Assembly: GCA_025060715.1 (NCBI GenBank)
Contig: JANXBG010000003.1
Coordinates: forward strand, 412 to 64,411
Direction: 5' to 3'
Length of the DNA: 64,000 nucleotides
DNA from: a candidate division WOR-3 bacterium
GTDB taxonomy: Bacteria > Hydrothermota > Tepidihabitantia > Tepidihabitantales > DTDR01
The notes beneath the pieces were generated by a model. It was not told the DNA's origin. It ran no database searches and worked only from the letters and a program-made list of their open reading frames with translations. Of the stretch, positions 13,516-56,925 are shown piece after piece (the first letter of the stretch is position 1; the number at the start of each line of letters is the position of its first letter). The translations under genes and the position numbers were made by a program.

Positions 13516-13620
13516 TATTTATAAAAATTTTTATTGATATATCTATTTGTTAAAAAAGAAACAATGATATCTATATTTTTTGTCAATTTCATTAGAGATA
13601 TAATCAATTAATTTTTTCCC

Positions 13621-14002
13621 ATTCTTCAATCATTTTCTTAGCTATTAAAGGATAGCCCCTCATTGGACAGGACTTCAATTAATTTCCGCCTTGAGTATAT
13701 AAATACCAATTATATTACTCACCGCATAAAGGAAGAATACACAAGGAGCACAATCACCATACCAATTAATGTGAAAATAACCACTTTCTCTACCACCAGT
13801 AATACAACCATGGGAAGTTATTCCGTGGTTCCAAAAATTAGCAATCATTATCTTTTTCTTCCTCACTATTTTCCAACTCCTTTACCAAATCCATATTCGT
13901 TGCTTCGGGTCGGATTAAACTCAAATCAGTATCTCGGCCTATCAGTATATAATGAAAATAACCAACCATACGCCGTTTTTATCCTAAAAAGTCAATAAAT
14001 TC
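13621..14002 (-). pseudogene. decayed 3'-half copy of the radical SAM gene at 41125-42561
   Basis: The minus strand aligns at nucleotide level to 41932-42412. For example, KKIMIANFWNHGITSHGCITGGRESGYFHINWYGDCAPCVFFLYAVSNII matches KKIMIADFWNHGTTSHGCIAGGREGGYFHINWHGDCAPCVFFPYAVSNII. The copy has an early stop (GAC TTT TTA GGA TAA), frameshifting indels, and a ~95-nt internal deletion relative to about 42270-42360. The N-terminal CX3CX2C half is absent. Confidence 0.75.
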
Positions 14003-14094
14003 AAAAGTTATTAAAAACTTTGTCAAATAAAATAGATATGTTAAAGAATGGTTACTAAATTTAATAAACTTCTTAAAATAATAAAAAATCCGTA

Positions 14095-14225
14095 ACTGAT
14101 ATGCCATATAGCCATAGGAATAATACTTATCTTTATATACCTTTCCCCTATCAAATAAATATTATAATTTTTCTTGTATTTTGAGTTGCTTCTCTTTGAG
14201 GCCTTTTAAGAAAACTAATATTCTA
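14095..14225 (-). repeat. possible degenerate copy (E) of the intergenic repeat family
   Basis: The reverse complement reads ...TTTTCTTAAAAGGCC...TTGATAGGGGAAAGGTATATAAAGATAAGTATTATTCCTATGGCTATATGGCATATC. This loosely parallels TTTTCTTAATGC...AAGGGGG...CTATAAAGAAGGGGGCAGTATAGTATATGGTATAGG of copy A. The match is weak. Confidence 0.25.
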
Positions 14226-21015: not shown

Positions 21016-21028
21016 TACTTTAAGCCCC

Positions 21029-21052
21029 AACCAGAAAAATAAATTTCTGGTT
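21029..21052 (+). promoter_or_regulatory. stem-loop in the csp 5'UTR
   Basis: AACCAGAAA (21029-21037) pairs perfectly with TTTCTGGTT (21044-21052), giving a 9-bp stem around a 6-nt loop. It lies between the promoter and the SD (AAGGTAGG). Confidence 0.4.
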
Positions 21053-21081
21053 AAACTTGGGCTAAAAGGTAGGTGAAGAAT

Positions 21082-21288
21082 ATGTTTGGTAAAGTAAAAT
21101 GGTTTGACAGTAAGAAGGGTTATGGTTTTATTGAAGCCGAAGATGGTAGTGGCGATGTATTTGTTCATTATACCGATATCTTAAGTAAGGGTTTTAAGAC
21201 TTTAAAAGAAGGTGAAAAAGTAAAGTTTGAAATCGCTGATAGCCCAAAAGGTAAAAAAGCAGTTAAGGTAGAAAGAGTTTCCGAATAA
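21082..21288 (+). CDS. cspA: cold-shock protein (CspA family)
   Basis: [33 protein letters not shown] carries the RNP1 (KGYGFI) and RNP2 (VFVHY) motifs. The ATG at 21082 with an SD is preferred over the GTG at 21073. Confidence 0.9.
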
Positions 21289-22414: not shown

Positions 22415-22464
22415 TCCTCCTTAAAATTTAATAATATTTTTTATTATTATAATTGTGTAAAAAT

Positions 22465-22584
22465 TGTGGAAAACTTAAGAAATTATATATTTTATAAGAC
22501 ATTATCTTCCACATTTTCCAAAATTTTTAATGTGGAAAATAAGAAAAAGTAGCACTTTTCCACATTTTCCACAGTTTTTCCACA
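22465..22584. promoter_or_regulatory. oriC-type cluster of six DnaA boxes with an adjacent AT-rich stretch
   Basis: TTTTCCACA occurs at 22556-22564, 22565-22573 and 22576-22584. Its complement TGTGGAAAA occurs at 22465-22473 and 22531-22539, and TCTTCCACA at 22505-22513. The stretch 22421-22456 is almost pure A/T. The cluster lies directly 3' of dnaA. Confidence 0.7.
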
Positions 22585-25233: not shown

Positions 25234-25362
25234 TTAAAAGTATTTAAAAATTCTAACAATTATATAAAATAAAAGAGCTATTAAAATAATTAAAAAATAC
25301 CATAAATATTTTAAAGGTAAAAAATAATTTTTCTCTTTAAAAAATTTTCTTTTAAAAAACAT
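25234..25362 (-). CDS. candidate 42-aa single-pass membrane peptide (below the ORF-track cutoff)
   Basis: It reads MFFKRKFFKEKNYFLPLKYLWYFLIILIALLFYIIVRIFKYF. Its ATG lies 7 nt after a -10 hexamer. Its stop is 12 nt before the next gene's ATG, across that gene's SD. Confidence 0.3.
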   Translation of the reverse strand: MFFKRKFFKEKNYFLPLKYLWYFLIILIALLFYIIVRIFKYF

Positions 25363-25397: not shown

Positions 25398-25454
25398 GAA
25401 AAGAGGAGGAAAGTTAATTACTTGACAAATTACAATATATGTATTTAGTGAAAG

Positions 25455-25826: not shown

Positions 25827-25857
25827 AAAAGGCATTAAAAAACAAAGTTATGTTAAT

Positions 25858-25886
25858 TTGACAAAAATGGAAATTTTTTTTATAAT
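25858..25886 (+). promoter_or_regulatory. sigma70-type promoter of the OmpA-family gene
   Basis: TTGACA (25858-25863), 17 nt, TATAAT (25881-25886), 8 nt, then ATG at 25895. Confidence 0.45.
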
Positions 25887-36777: not shown

Positions 36778-36865
36778 TAAAATTACTAAATTTCAAATTC
36801 AACTTTTTATAACTTTGCCAAAAAATGTCGCTATTTGTCACAATCTCTCTTTACTTACTATCTCT

Positions 36866-36953
36866 TAGTTTTTCCTAATATTATTTGAAGATTTTAATTA
36901 AAAAAGGGAAGGGGGTATGATAGGGGGTATGGTCTTAGGGTCTAATAAAGATT
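36866..36953 (+). repeat. possible degenerate copy (G) of the intergenic repeat family
   Basis: TAGTTTTTCCTAAT...AAAAGGGAAGGGGGTATGATAGGGGGTATGGTCTTAGGGTCTAATAAAGATT parallels TAGATATTTTCTTAAT...AAAGAAGGGGGCAGTATAGTATATGGTATAGGTATTAAATAATAATT of copy A. It lies upstream of and co-oriented with the tRNA-Ala promoter. Confidence 0.3.
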
Positions 36954-37226
36954 AACTTTCTTATTTATATTTTTATTCAGCAGTTATTAATGATTTTTAT
37001 AGTGTTTTTCTAGTTTAATAAAATATGATATTTTTATCTTAATAAAATAGAGTTTAATGGTTTAATAGGAGTTAAACTATGGGAGTGGATGGGGAATTTA
37101 GTTGATAAATGCCAGTGAGAATTGGAGTAGAGATAAGTAATAAAAGTAATACAATTAATCTTTTAAATGAAATGATTTTGTCTTTGGATAATTTGAGCGG
37201 GTGCTTTTTATTTAAATTAAAATCGC

Positions 37227-37254
37227 TTGACGAATAGAAAAATTTTGTTAAAAT
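37227..37254 (+). promoter_or_regulatory. sigma70-type promoter of the tRNA-Ala/pdaD unit
   Basis: TTGACG (37227-37232), 16 nt, TAAAAT (37249-37254). It ends 23 nt upstream of tRNA position 1. Confidence 0.45.
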
Positions 37255-37277
37255 TTTACATAATAAAAATGAGGTCT

Positions 37278-41124: not shown

Positions 41125-42561
41125 ATGAAAAAAGAAGAAAATTTAATAATTAAAATAATAAAATTAGGAGCAAATTTAGACCGATTAGTTCCTTTTTCAC
41201 CGATTAGAGGACTTTCTAAATTCACTTTTAATTTATTCTCACCGAAATTAAAAGAAGCTTGTTTAAATAAAGAGCATACCTCTTCTTATCAAGTGGGTTT
41301 GGACCTTTATTACATGATTTATGCAATGTTGAATTCAGCTTTAAGAGTTTCCTGGTCGATAAACTCTTTAAATATTTTTTTAAGAGCAATCTTTCAAAAT
41401 AAGGATGCTTCAAGAATTAAAAGGGAGTGGCGCGAAAAATATGGTGAAGGTCCACCGGGATTCTTGGTTATTTCGCCAACAAAGGCTTGTAATTTAAAAT
41501 GTTATGGTTGTTATGCGAATGCGGCTAAAGAGAGGGATAAATTACCAAAGGAGGTATTTGAAAGGATAATAAGAGAGGCGATTAATCTTTGGGGTGTTAG
41601 GTTTTTTGTTATTTCTGGTGGTGAGCCGTTGATGTATAAAGATAAGGGAGAGGATTTACTTTCTATTTTAAGCAAATTTCCTGAAGCGATATTTTTGTTT
41701 TATACGAATGGTTTATTAATAGATGAGGAGCGAGCGAAGAGGATGGCGGAGATGGGAAATGTGACGCCGGCGATATCGGTGGAAGGTTTTAAAGAGACGA
41801 CCGATAAAAGGAGGGGAGAGGGCAGTTTTGAGAAAATCTTAGAGGTTATGGAAAGATTAAGGAAGAAAAAGGTGTTATTTGGTATTTCATTAACGGCGAC
41901 GAGGTATAATTGCGAAGAGATACTTTCTAATGAGTTTATTGACTTTTTCTTTTTTAAGATAAAAGCGGCGTATGGTTGGTTATTTCATTATATGCCGATA
42001 GGTCGGGATGCTGATCCCAGTTTAATGCCGACACCGAAGCAGCGAATATGGATGTGGCAAAGGAGTTGGGAGATAGTGAAGAAGAAAAAGATAATGATTG
42101 CCGATTTTTGGAATCACGGGACAACTTCTCATGGTTGTATTGCTGGTGGTAGAGAAGGTGGTTATTTTCACATTAATTGGCATGGTGATTGTGCTCCTTG
42201 TGTATTTTTCCCTTATGCGGTGAGTAATATAATTGATATTTATAATCAAGGTGGAAATTTGAACGATGTCTTATTTACACCTTTTTTTAAGGCGATAAGG
42301 GAATGGCAGAAAGGGTATGGGTTTTTATCAGGTGGAAAAGTGAGTGGGGATTGGCTAAGACCTTGTCCAATAAGGGACCATTTTTTAACGGCTAAGAAAA
42401 TGATTGAAGAATACGGTGCAAGACCCATTGATTATGCACCAGAAGAGAGTCTAAAAAACCAAGAATATATAGAAAAAATGGCAAACTACGATAAGGAATT
42501 AGAGGCTCTTACTACACCGATTTGGGAAAACATTTATTTAAATCATCATTCTAAAAAATAA
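41125..42561 (+). CDS. radical SAM protein with a C-terminal Cys-rich (SPASM/twitch-like) region; substrate unknown
   Basis: The CX3CX2C motif is at PTKACNLKCYGCYA, with a GGEPL motif (ISGGEPLMY). The auxiliary Cys region is SHGCIAGGREGGYFHINWHGDCAPCVFF...LRPCPIRDH. A ~115-aa N-terminal extension precedes the core. Confidence 0.8.
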   Translation: MKKEENLIIKIIKLGANLDRLVPFSPIRGLSKFTFNLFSPKLKEACLNKEHTSSYQVGLDLYYMIYAMLNSALRVSWSINSLNIFLRAIFQNKDASRIKREWREKYGEGPPGFLVISPTKACNLKCYGCYANAAKERDKLPKEVFERIIREAINLWGVRFFVISGGEPLMYKDKGEDLLSILSKFPEAIFLFYTNGLLIDEERAKRMAEMGNVTPAISVEGFKETTDKRRGEGSFEKILEVMERLRKKKVLFGISLTATRYNCEEILSNEFIDFFFFKIKAAYGWLFHYMPIGRDADPSLMPTPKQRIWMWQRSWEIVKKKKIMIADFWNHGTTSHGCIAGGREGGYFHINWHGDCAPCVFFPYAVSNIIDIYNQGGNLNDVLFTPFFKAIREWQKGYGFLSGGKVSGDWLRPCPIRDHFLTAKKMIEEYGARPIDYAPEESLKNQEYIEKMANYDKELEALTTPIWENIYLNHHSKK

Positions 42562-45050: not shown

Positions 45051-45183
45051 ATAAAAGTAAATGTGTTAAGACCTGGTTAACAGCTTAATAAGAAATTATA
45101 AAATAATAGGCGTTCCTGAGAAAAAGACCCCTTTACTAACGCCAAAGGAATACTAAACATATTTTTGATAAAAAGTGCTAACC

Positions 45184-45535
45184 TTTGTGGGTGTTTTTTC
45201 GTTATATATAAAGGAGAAGTTTATGGCTAATAAGATAAGAAAATATTATTTCTCTTTGGACTGGGATTATCTAACAAATTGCTAAAGAATTTAATTAAGA
45301 AAAAAGGAGGTATTAGGGAAGTTATATATTTCTTTGTTAAAAAATAATTAAGTAATTCTTTTAGATATTTTCTTAATGCTACCTTGATAAGACAAGGGGG
45401 TTTTACTTTCTATAAAGAAGGGGGCAGTATAGTATATGGTATAGGTATTAAATAATAATTTGGTTTGCAGGTAAAACAAAGATTTGGTTTTTAAGTATAC
45501 TGATATTTCTTTTATGACAACGAAAAGAGGTTTAA
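45184..45535 (+). repeat. intergenic repeat family, copy A (longest)
   Basis: It aligns with the reverse complements of 25455-25826 (copy B) and 56711-56855 (copy C). The core 45391-45444 is ACAAGGGGGTTTTACTTTCTATAAAGAAGGGGGCAGTATAGTATATGGTATAGG. It carries a ~85-nt insertion (about 45211-45290) absent from B. Confidence 0.7.
45223..45285 (+). CDS. candidate 20-aa ORF inside the copy-A-specific insertion
   Basis: AAGGAG lies 6 nt before the ATG. The peptide is MANKIRKYYFSLDWDYLTNC. No other support. Confidence 0.15.
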   Translation: MANKIRKYYFSLDWDYLTNC

Positions 45536-45587
45536 CTTATTAGATAATTATGTTCGTGATTATTGTCTCATTATGGTTTAGTAACCC

Positions 45588-45668
45588 AAATACAAAAACT
45601 GGCTTCCAACCCCACCCCCGTTGGAAGCCAGCAGAGGAATCCTTTAGACAACTACCTTCTTAAATTAA
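45588..45668 (-). ncRNA. candidate ~80-nt small RNA (own promoter plus intrinsic terminator)
   Basis: A minus-strand promoter at 45702-45675 has no ATG within 30 nt of the predicted start. A 12-bp perfect hairpin (45630-45598) is followed on the minus strand by TTTTTGTATTT. Confidence 0.35.
45598..45630 (-). terminator. intrinsic terminator hairpin (minus-strand polarity)
   Basis: CTGGCTTCCAAC (45598-45609) and GTTGGAAGCCAG (45619-45630) form a perfect 12-bp stem around a 9-nt C-rich loop. The T-tract is present only on the minus-strand side (plus-strand CAAAAA at 45592-45597). Confidence 0.5.
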
Positions 45669-45674
45669 CTAATT

Positions 45675-45702
45675 ATTATAATATATTTTCATAAAAAATC
45701 AA
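45675..45702 (-). promoter_or_regulatory. sigma70-type promoter of the candidate sRNA, divergent from the B12-rSAM promoter
   Basis: On the minus strand: TTGATT (45702-45697), 16 nt, TATAAT (45680-45675). Confidence 0.4.
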
Positions 45703-45715
45703 TATTTATTTTCTT

Positions 45716-45744
45716 TTGACTTTATCTTCTTTAAGAGTTATAAT
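45716..45744 (+). promoter_or_regulatory. sigma70-type promoter, leaderless type, of the B12-binding radical SAM gene
   Basis: TTGACT (45716-45721), 17 nt, TATAAT (45739-45744), 8 nt, then ATG at 45753. No SD. Confidence 0.5.
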
Positions 45745-51965: not shown

Positions 51966-52091
51966 TGTTTTATCTTATTTAAGCCTTTTTTAATTTTAAT
52001 CACTTTATCATTTTCGTCAATAATTTTATTTTTCATTTTAAATATTTTAAGTTTGGTTGCTTTTCAAAGGCTTTATAATACTAAAATAATC

Positions 52092-52178
52092 GAAAGATGT
52101 GATTTCTAATGCCGCGTTATAATGTCTAAATCTATAAAGAGTAGAGTTTATGGTTAAGTAGGCAGAAGTATAATTTAG
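52092..52178 (+). repeat. possible degenerate copy (D) of the intergenic repeat family
   Basis: GATGTGATTTCTAATGCCGCGTTATAATGTCTAAATCTATAAAGAGTAGAGTTTATGGTTAAGTAGGCAGAAGTATAATTTAG parallels GATATTTTCTTAATGC..TTGATAAG...TTTCTATAAAGAAGGGG...TATGGTATAGGTA of copy A. It lies upstream of and co-oriented with the pepP-efp-accC unit. Confidence 0.3.
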
Positions 52179-52471
52179 TCTATTTCAATAGCTTATCAAA
52201 AGCCTTTAGCGCCTCTTCATAAAGAATGAGGTGATTTAAAATATTACCTTTATTATTCTAAAATTAAGCCCAATAAGAAGTCTATTTCCGTTACCCTTTC
52301 TAAAGTTTTTAATGTTTTGAGTTATTATTTTTCTTACCCACTTTTTTCTTAACTAAAGTAGTAACAAAACTCAGTTTTTTACGCAATCGTTTATTAAACG
52401 AATTTAACACTGTCACAAAACCTGACCAATATTAAAAACATCCATCTTTAAAATCTTTCTTAATAGTTAAA

Positions 52472-52500
52472 TTGACTTAATTAATTTTCTTATTTAAAAT
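52472..52500 (+). promoter_or_regulatory. sigma70-type promoter, leaderless type, of the pepP-efp-accC unit
   Basis: TTGACT (52472-52477), 17 nt, TAAAAT (52495-52500), 5 nt, then ATG at 52506. Confidence 0.45.
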
Positions 52501-52505
52501 ATTCA

Positions 52506-56134: not shown

Positions 56135-56295
56135 AATTGGTAATAACAATAGGGACATTCTTTTGCGGAAAGAGGAATAAACCTATCACAATAGGGACAC
56201 TTTTTAAATTCAATTTGGCAAATTTTACAAAAGATATTTTCTTTGGCTAATTCTTGATTACAGAAAGGGCAATGGCAATTATTCTCCTCTTTCAT
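56131..56295 (-). CDS. 54-aa double zinc-ribbon protein (below the ORF-track cutoff)
   Basis: It reads MKEENNCHCPFCNQELAKENIFCKICQIEFKKCPYCDRFIPLSAKECPYCYYQF, with four CxxC pairs. Its ATG lies inside the last codons of iscU (17-nt overlap). Confidence 0.45.
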   Translation of the reverse strand: MKEENNCHCPFCNQELAKENIFCKICQIEFKKCPYCDRFIPLSAKECPYCYYQF

Positions 56296-56665
56296 TTTTT
56301 CCCTTCTTTTTTAAATAATTTTCAATTGCTTTATGTAAGGCATCGGCACCTAGATTAGAGCAGTGCATTTTATGAGGTGGTAAGCCACCGAGTTCTTTGG
56401 CAACCATTTCGTTTGTTATTTTTAATGCTTCTTCAATTTTTTTGCCCTTTGCCATCTCGGAAACCATACTGGCGACAGCAATCGCGGCACCACAACCAAA
56501 GGTTTTATATTTCACATCTACTAAAATTCCATCTCTTACTTTAATATAAAAAGTCATCATATCTCCACAGACCGGATTACCTACTTCCCCAATACCATCA
56601 GCATCAGGGATTTCCCCAACATTCCTAGGATTTAAAAAATGCTCCATTACTTTTTCCGAATACAT
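56279..56665 (-). CDS. iscU: Fe-S cluster assembly scaffold IscU/NifU-like
   Basis: It has YSEKVMEHFLNPRNVG, GNPVCGDMM, FGCGAAIAVASM and LPPHKMHCSNLGADAL. The start is set at M13 (ATG 56665), which lies 7 nt after a -10 hexamer. Confidence 0.85.
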   Translation of the reverse strand: MYSEKVMEHFLNPRNVGEIPDADGIGEVGNPVCGDMMTFYIKVRDGILVDVKYKTFGCGAAIAVASMVSEMAKGKKIEEALKITNEMVAKELGGLPPHKMHCSNLGADALHKAIENYLKKKGKNERGE

Positions 56666-56672
56666 CAAAATT

Positions 56673-56701
56673 ATTATAATAAATAATTTTGTAAAAATCA
56701 A
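56673..56701 (-). promoter_or_regulatory. sigma70-type promoter, leaderless type, of iscU
   Basis: On the minus strand: TTGATT (56701-56696), 17 nt, TATAAT (56678-56673), 7 nt, then ATG at 56665. Confidence 0.5.
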
Positions 56702-56710
56702 ATGAAATAA

Positions 56711-56855
56711 ACTATATTATATACTATATCGTCCCCTTCTTTATAGAAAATAAAATCCCTTTGTTTTATAAAAAACCTCCCTTTAAAATTCCTTTCTTAG
56801 TACTACTACTGGGAGATTAATCTTTGATAATATATAACAAAAAATAACCCTAAAG
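56711..56855 (-). repeat. intergenic repeat family, copy C (short form)
   Basis: The reverse complement of 56711-56766 is AAACAAAGGGATTTTATTTTCTATAAAGAAGGGGACGATATAGTATATAATATAGT. This matches copy A 45391-45444 at roughly 45 of 55 positions by eye. The upstream blocks CTTTAGGGTTATTTTTTGTTATATAT and ACTAAGAAAGGAATTTTAAAGGGAGG also match A and B. It lacks the 26-nt AATTCTTTTAGATATTTTCTTAATGC block. Confidence 0.65.
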
Positions 56856-56890
56856 ATCATTACTTTTTTTATTCAAATATTTTAAATTTA

Positions 56891-56919
56891 TTGACTAATA
56901 GATAAAATTTTGTTATTAT
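56891..56919 (+). promoter_or_regulatory. sigma70-type promoter, leaderless type, of rpsP
   Basis: TTGACT (56891-56896), 17 nt, TATTAT (56914-56919), 6 nt, then ATG at 56926. No SD. Confidence 0.5.
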
Positions 56920-56925
56920 TATTTA

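Follow-up and report, generated by a model that had tools for sequence, protein, structure and literature searches.

Some bacterial MITEs carry promoters of their own, as do the Correia elements of Neisseria, and several other families of intergenic repeats, namely the pneumococcal BOX elements (boxA-boxB-boxC), RUP and the enterobacterial ERIC, are modular. The REPs are palindromes of 20-40 nt, often arranged as inverted doublets, that are mobilised by RAYT transposases. Small, tightly packed genomes are usually thought to be poor in repetitive DNA.

The element described here was found in a 64,000-nt stretch of DNA (hereinafter, the window; G+C ~30%) from a MAG of the candidate division WOR-3, a lineage to which homologues of DnaA and MiaB are also assigned. 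Three copies, denoted A, B and C, occupy intergenic spacers of the window, and a fourth copy, D, is present in a related locus, L052. The element is a new family of an ordinary, familiar kind. With moderate confidence, A, B and C are interpreted as a young, lineage-restricted, non-coding, non-autonomous insertion element, or decaying relics thereof, that entered these sites after the split from the nearest sampled relatives, and not as a conserved regulatory region.

Paralogous copies within the window

The three copies of the window are the following:

45163-45575, plus strand: copy A, inside an insertion of ~525 nt (45057-45581); alignable with B and C
~25830-25446, minus strand: copy B, boundaries approximate; alignable with A and C
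56876-56705, minus strand: copy C, the short form (HMM match 56875-56699, E=1e-26)

Copies A, B and C are genuine paralogous DNA, with similarity far above chance. In a self-blastn of the window, A and B align over 227 nt (70% identity, E=2e-26), A and C over 61 nt (84%, E=4e-12), and B and C over 111 nt (67%, E=2e-7), the best of the unrelated AT-rich matches reaching only ~41 bits; a repeat search of the window likewise returned A/B (77 nt at 78%) and A/C (61 nt at 84%). When each local alignment was compared with 200 dinucleotide-preserving shuffles, a control proposed in an earlier note on this DNA, the z-scores were 25 (A-B), 10.9 (A-C) and 7.4 (B-C) and none of the 200 shuffles attained the observed score, in agreement with the claim of that note that the shared blocks are too long for chance. 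The 26-mer that it had matched between A and B stands at 25 of 26 identical positions, with none expected by chance, once the coordinates in A are shifted by one base (45354-45379 versus 25693-25668). The exact A/B match and the recurrence of the core in C hold as well: the window has precisely three occurrences of the 20-mer TTTTAYTTTCTATARAGRAG (45401, 25646 and 56755), against an expectation of 0. A profile HMM of the four copies recovers only A, B, C and D from the window and 266 kb of related loci, and its reversed-sequence control yields no matches.

Block structure and mosaic conservation

Direct reading of the three window copies reveals a common ordered set of blocks, numbered 0-5. 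Block 0 is an A-run, block 1 is CCTTTnnGGGTGTTTTTTCGTTATATAT (the promoter-like motif can also be written TAACCTTT-N13-CGT), block 3, the core, is ACAAGGGGGTTTTACTTTCTATAAAGAAGGGGGCAGTATAGTATATGGTATAGG and is found in all four copies, and blocks 4 and 5 are common to A and B only. The core comprises two G-runs, a short CUUUCU/AGAAGG inverted repeat and rTATAG-N6/7-rTATAG. The parts are distributed as follows:

45057-45581, plus strand: whole copy A insertion relative to sister species; both flanks align to the empty site
45057-45162, plus strand: 5' extension of A, common to copy D (L052) only and absent in B and C
45166-45212, plus strand: blocks 0/1 of A, an A-run followed by the ECF-sigma-like TAAC (45179-45182)-N17-CGTTAT (45200-45205)
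45354-45379, plus strand: block 2 of A, AATTCTTTTAGATATTTTCTTAATGC; in A and B, recognisable in D
45392-45445, plus strand: core (block 3) of A, consisting of a G-run, TTTTACTTTCTATAAAGAAG, a second G-run and GTATAG-N6-GTATAG; in all four copies
45446-45575, plus strand: blocks 4-5 and 3' tail of A, common to B only
25804-25777, minus strand: ECF-like motif of B, TAAC-N18-CGTTAT
25693-25668, minus strand: block 2 of B, matching A at 25/26
25656-25599, minus strand: core of B
56876-56828, minus strand: degenerate block 0/1 of C, with AAC and the C of CGT lost
56766-56711, minus strand: core of C; the middle of the element is deleted

The copies are modular and unequal, ranging from at least 280 nt, possibly ~1.1 kb, in D through 525 nt in A and ~385 nt in B to ~172 nt in the internally deleted C. 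In the 3' tail, the A-B alignment scores 59 compared to a shuffle maximum of 52 (0/200), and the A-D and B-D alignments over this tail are not significant. L052 shares the 5' extension, its segment 9945-9895 matching the opening ~60 nt of the A insertion (GTAAATGTGTTAAGACCTGGTTAAC...; window 45054-45115; 47/61 identical, E=4e-8); the motif GTGTTAAGAC of 45057-45162 is present only in the window and in L052 among the related loci, and the sole near match of the 5' motif GTAAANGTGTTAAGAC elsewhere in the window is inside a csp coding region. In the window, a cold-shock protein gene (21083-21288, plus strand) has a long 5'-leader hairpin (~21023-21062) and stands amid minus-strand genes.

Conservation is strongly mosaic. 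The variance of identity in 25-nt windows is 4-10 times the permuted value (0/1000), a statistic that is inflated by indels. Conservation is highest in block 0/1, block 2 and the core, and the two modules that are kept best are the 5' TAAC-N17/18-CGT and the purine-run/TATAG core. Across A, D and B, the TAAC...CGT block is the best conserved of all, A and D being identical at 31 of 33 positions there versus 64% overall. This pattern suggests some constraint at the level of the host, such that 'pure junk' would be an incomplete account, and, being so strongly mosaic, makes a function at the DNA level, as a promoter or a binding site, possible.

Empty sites in sister species

The loci of sister species were obtained via DnaA (86-91% identical), the TonB-type receptor (76-85%) and MiaB (74-83%). 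Much closer to the window are contig JAOACO010000003.1 (GCA_026417775.1), with 99.97% identity over the 7.3 kb compared, and a second, equally close MAG, GCA_033580715.1.

The spacer that harbours copy A, between the gene for an 821-aa protein and the B12-radical-SAM gene, is 736 nt long in the window versus 195, 193 and 159 nt in L052, L057 and L055, respectively, the TonB-type receptor orthologues of which are 76-85% identical to that of the window. The left flank (ending at 45056) and the right flank (from ~45582) both align to a single stretch of the empty site, which in L052 and L057 reads ...ATGTCAAATAAAAAACTGGCTTCC.... On its left, copy A is bordered by CAAATAAAA and on its right by CAAATACAAAA, i.e., by the same 8-11 nt, CAAATAAAA(AA), of the empty site. 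This AT-rich and imperfect repeat looks like a target duplication; its AAATACA may also end copy B, and the true duplication is possibly only 3-4 nt.

Conservation in element-free relatives extends to the strong hairpin at 45599-45632 and to the rSAM promoter at 45716-45744, both of which are therefore older than the element. The hairpin is G+C-rich and 12 bp long, with a T-run after it on the minus strand and a sigma-70-like promoter (45702-45675) before it. The entire stretch 45593-45702 (minus strand), which gives no significant Rfam match, is conserved in relatives without the element and may be a minus-strand small RNA of ~75 nt or a terminator/insulator between the divergent genes.

At the B site, the spacer between the OmpA gene and the membrane-protein/dnaA unit spans 673 nt in the window versus 310-340 nt in five contigs (L046-L050) with DnaA 86-91% identical to that of the window, and copy B is not present in the orthologous spacer of these contigs. 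Homology to them ends near 25853 and returns around 25445-25453, immediately 5' of the TTGACA promoter, itself conserved, that serves the membrane-protein/dnaA unit. The 382-aa membrane-protein gene is preceded by a 42-aa hydrophobic ORF (25234-25362, minus strand), which in all relatives is highly conserved at the nucleotide level, more strongly than the spacer around it, and is possibly a small membrane peptide or a leader. The possibility that copy B is oriC was rejected, with B containing only one DnaA box, with a single mismatch, and the real cluster being at 22454-22584. There, a 186-nt spacer just downstream of dnaA contains nine DnaA-box-like sites, five of them perfect (TTTTCCACA), and this is likely the replication origin; the cumulative GC skew reaches its minimum near 24 kb, and the genes change orientation at 25.2-25.9 kb.

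Copy C fits exactly between the iscU promoter (56701-56673, minus strand) and the rpsP promoter (56891-56919, plus strand). In L058, an iscU orthologue with 94% identity is preceded by a spacer of 98 nt that contains the same TTGAyT-17-TATAAT promoter and no element. Synteny at this locus differs: relatives have rpsP 35-105 nt after two peptidase-M16 genes and iscU at another location. A comparison of window 56279-56925 with L058 20179-20963 places iscU next to rpsP in the window and next to an hpf-like (S30AE) gene in L058. The promoter of iscU has been retained in this change of neighbourhood, and copy C is at the junction of the rearrangement. Without the elements, the lengths of the three spacers would be 211, 147 and 88 nt, ordinary values for the lineage and near those in relatives.

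Copy D in a related genome

The search of relatives with nhmmer, proposed in the earlier note, brought up the fourth copy when run with A: copy D, at 9110-8832 of L052 on the minus strand (A versus D by blastn: 283 nt, 64%, E=4e-20). It lies in a 1375-nt spacer between the gene for a 478-aa radical-SAM protein and an ABC permease gene, a site that is not orthologous to that of A. The A site of L052 itself is empty, and the family is therefore present in at least two species, at different sites and with different lengths.

The 5' piece and the main body, which adjoin in A, are ~830 nt apart in L052. Six-frame translation of this interior shows stops throughout and no Pfam match was obtained, the best score (E=0.04) being to an unrelated family, and a decayed transposase was rejected accordingly. 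Two exact 31-nt repeats (ATCCCTTTTTAATCAGGGAAGGAATTCTGAC), 86 nt apart and each with a 5-bp internal palindrome, are found at 9420-9536 of L052, in the same spacer as D and upstream of the ABC permease genes. These are CRISPR-like or part of another repeat; Rfam gave only a non-significant Moco-riboswitch match (E=0.99), and the inter-repeat sequence is without viral match. A CRISPR leader was likewise discarded as an identity for the element: the window contains no array, and the L052 31-nt repeats are ~310 nt from D rather than adjoining it.

Setting between divergent promoters

In a consensus scan, each of the three window copies was found between the outward-facing -35 boxes of two back-to-back promoters, which lie outside the element and are conserved in relatives:

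45050-45023, minus strand, and 45716-45744, plus strand: sigma-70-type promoters flanking copy A
25397-25370, minus strand, and 25858-25886, plus strand: sigma-70-type promoters flanking copy B
56701-56673, minus strand, and 56891-56919, plus strand: sigma-70-type promoters flanking copy C

Copies occupy three of the six divergent spacers of the window and none of the other 26 spacers (chance ~0.007 by count, 0.04 by length). In a divergent spacer, either orientation faces a gene, and co-orientation is therefore uninformative; the observation that each copy points toward a downstream unit is correct as far as it goes, but, all three copies being in such spacers, carries no information. The proposed placement of the family upstream of operon-first promoters does not stand as worded either, the resident sigma-70 promoters lying outside the element and predating it. 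The distribution is consistent with survival of copies at only those sites where an insertion harmed neither a promoter nor a terminator nor an operon junction. The copies would persist in the gap between the -35 boxes, the one place where a compact genome would tolerate extra DNA, and the element neither replaces nor interrupts the resident sigma-70 promoters.

Other long spacers

Three weaker copies proposed earlier (52092-52178, 36866-36953 and 14095-14225) are indistinguishable from noise by both the HMM and the shuffles. None of them is among the 40 best matches of the four-sequence HMM with all HMMER filters off. Pairwise z-scores of the three regions are mostly ~0 in 24 tests, the two highest being 3.2 for A versus 36840-36990 and 4.3 for B versus 52060-52240, the latter in the orientation opposite to the one claimed. 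The spacer at 13.5-14.4 kb, to which 14095-14225 belongs, was rejected as the site of a weak copy, being the remnant of a decayed radical-SAM gene. Its length of 905 nt is due to this pseudogene (13619-14047, minus strand), which consists of three-frame fragments of a 470-aa radical-SAM gene, the intact counterpart of which is located between murJ and recA in relatives (L046 19551-20963); a 211-nt part of it is a 91% inverted match to a paralogue at 42034-42244.

The proposed six-member family upstream of, and co-oriented with, operon-first promoters is accordingly reduced to three real members in the window. The contention that the copies account for most of the long spacers stands for three of the seven longest and fails for the other four. 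The spacers 51966-52505 (540 nt) and 36778-37276 (499 nt) contain no copy of the element and no Rfam match, and show no similarity to the related loci that were fetched except for 29 nt at 37227-37255. The latter conserved stretch is ~20 nt upstream of tRNA-Ala.

Origin of the element

Among the three options offered in the earlier note, a regulator-binding platform, a decayed non-autonomous element and an unknown cis-RNA, the second is favoured by the absence of the element from the orthologous sites of sister species, the presence of D elsewhere, the variable blocks and the lack of coding capacity, and the third is not. Both the repeat bordering A and the presence of D at a non-orthologous site of L052 suggest transposition, and the element would accordingly have been spread by mobility. 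Going by motif resemblance, block 1 is possibly an ECF-sigma promoter, and the element would then carry its own alternative-sigma promoter firing through it to the adjoining gene, as in some bacterial MITEs. Like MITEs, the element is small and non-coding, has several copies and differs in presence between relatives. A classical MITE was nevertheless rejected since there are no terminal inverted repeats and the termini are not common to the copies: an inverted-repeat search of the three spacers returned none, the ends of A, GTAAATGTG... and ...TTTAGTAACC, are not complementary, and the ends differ among A, B, C and D. Neither the Pfam-scanned genes flanking the copies in the window nor those next to D include a transposase or recombinase, and no related autonomous element was detected in the scanned window genes, the L052 spacer, plasmids or phages. 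The small number of copies (three in the window and one in the related loci) counts against an insertion, and the element-free relatives could, in principle, be one clade that lost the element.

The element appears, from sequence searches, to be restricted to this lineage. The core 20-mer has 42 single chance matches in unrelated taxa among 185,579 species genomes, none of them element-like under the HMM, and a 24-mer has one chance match, in a coding region, in the JGI metagenomes, the source genome being evidently absent from both collections. The blastn search of plasmids and phages gave nothing. A viral origin was rejected, one pattern being too degenerate and giving only noise and the other yielding one chance match.

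Alternative explanations

The alternative that survives best is a portable regulatory module kept by selection, in which an ECF-sigma promoter and a leader upstream of the resident promoter would place the downstream genes (the B12-rSAM gene, the membrane/dnaA unit and iscU, as well as the rSAM gene in L052) also under a stress sigma factor. Such a module is compatible with a mobile origin and differs from it in asserting a present-day function. In many ECF -35 regions, AAC is followed by nTTT. The signature of ECF-sigma promoters is AAC in the -35 region and CGT in the -10 region (PMC3426412), and block 1, the best-conserved block, contains both at a spacing within 16-18 nt: TAAC-N17-CGTTAT in A, TAAC-N17-CGTATT in D and TAAC-N18-CGTTAT in B, with C degenerate. 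Block 1 thus shares with ECF promoters TAAC, a gap of 17-18 nt, CGT(T/A) and nTTT after AAC, and differs in having a gap near the upper limit of the usual length and in that the motif is confined to the repeat copies. Of the four neighbouring genes, three are Fe-S related (iscU and two radical-SAM genes), but radical-SAM genes are common in this genome and such adjacency is weak evidence.

Several observations make the module rather unlikely. No ECF sigma gene and no sigma/anti-sigma pair was identified among the annotated window proteins scanned, no other ECF-like site was detected in the window, and none that is informative in 266 kb of relatives. Copy C, which precedes iscU, lacks AAC and the C of CGT, the orientation of the copies in divergent spacers is uninformative, the relatives express the same genes without the element, and the conserved 12-bp hairpin and ~300 nt separate the A element from its gene. 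A more specific proposal, that of a mobile promoter cassette, is unlikely. In it, the selected cargo of a non-autonomous repeat would be the ECF promoter (TAAC-N17-CGT) and a purine-rich leader; landing immediately 5' of resident -35 boxes, the repeat would bring unrelated genes, in particular iscU and those of Fe-S enzymes, into a stress regulon of a single WOR-3 lineage.

Decidedly unlikely is a family of small non-coding RNA genes that would extend from block 1 to a hairpin and UUUUACUUUCU near the core and act in trans, e.g., as a sponge with several A(N)GGA/GGGG motifs. In A, B and D, block 2 (AAUUCUUUU) could pair with the G-run that immediately precedes UUUUAC to form a helix of 9 bp, with changes from G-U to A-U or G-C, a short hairpin of the Y-run and the R-run (CUUUCU/AGAAGG) is possible in all four cores, and a terminator-like site was flagged at 45382-45397 in A. 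The consensus fold, however, amounts to only -3.7 kcal/mol over 363 columns, and changes on both sides that keep the pair affect only 4 of 25 predicted pairs, too few for a structure; pair changes as a whole are mostly G-U wobble exchanges in pyrimidine-run/purine-run pairings. With four sequences, and hence low power, there is neither a fold that beats the shuffles nor covarying helices: three of the four copies fold worse than shuffles (z = +0.77 for A, +1.26 for D and +0.91 for C, compared to -1.71 for B). The inner hairpins are unlike between copies, and conservation is lowest between promoter and core, a region of which C has lost the greater part. At the gathering threshold, Rfam 15 recovers tRNA-Ala only; at E<=5, the best scores are 13-20 bits versus thresholds of 38-82 bits, and the copies have no match even there. 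The same results, i.e., the missing Rfam match, folds no better than shuffles and the weak consensus, speak against the unknown cis-RNA of the earlier note.

A DNA-level binding platform for a regulator or nucleoid protein, for which the candidate sites would be the near-palindrome TAACC-N5/6-GGKTR, the phased G-runs and CTATA...TATAG-N6/7-TATAG, is very doubtful. It would account for the short conserved blocks with variable DNA between them, for the location of every copy immediately upstream of -35 boxes and for the ~22-nt periodicity inside copy C (56732-56784). Yet the candidate sites matched no known motif, their half-sites are imperfect and differ among copies, the same promoters are present in relatives without the element, and the single DnaA-box-like site in B compares poorly with the real box cluster at 22454-22584.

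Finally, a gene for a small hydrophobic, type I toxin-like peptide across block 1, with the rest of the element as its regulatory RNA, is hardly credible: the short block 1 ORFs encode similar residues (A, MLTFVGVFSLYI...; D, MVTFMGVFSYYIY...; B, ..LLTFGATFFVIIY; C, MIFRVIFCYIL..), but lack a Shine-Dalgarno sequence, as opposed to the AAGGAGG of real window genes, and have unrelated lengths and C-termini, a 1-nt indel inside block 1 of B puts TTTTTCGTTATA in another frame, conservation is at the nucleotide rather than the amino-acid level, and hydrophobic peptides arise from T-rich DNA in any frame. Neither strand of the copies has a conserved ORF or frame, and mismatches are without codon-position bias; the conserved hydrophobic ORF with a ribosome-binding site that characterises type I toxin-antitoxin systems is missing from the element.

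Comparison with known repeat families

If the interpretation as an insertion element is correct, this is a previously undescribed dispersed repeat family in uncultured thermophilic WOR-3 bacteria with small, tightly packed genomes, a modest finding. The copies would then mark recent genome change, two of the four (C and D) being at synteny breakpoints, and for annotation the lesson would be that such long spacers are not to be taken for conserved leaders or riboswitches. Were the internal ECF-like promoter active, the element would be a natural example of regulon growth via a mobile promoter.

The element differs from REPs and REPINs in its length of 170-500 nt and in that no dominant palindrome and no RAYT gene were seen, and resembles them as a dispersed intergenic repeat without a transposase of its own. 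With BOX, RUP and ERIC, there is no sequence similarity, the long imperfect palindrome or stable stem-loop is missing, and the host belongs to the phylum WOR-3; in common with these repeats, the element consists of separable blocks in varying combinations and is non-coding, lineage-restricted and located near promoters. Compared to Correia-type MITEs, the element is without terminal inverted repeats, common termini or a parent insertion sequence found, varies in length from 172 to >500 nt and has been seen in four copies. Like these MITEs, it is short, non-coding, multi-copy and intergenic near promoters, varies in presence between close relatives, has a short flanking direct repeat (at copy A) and possibly contains an internal promoter.
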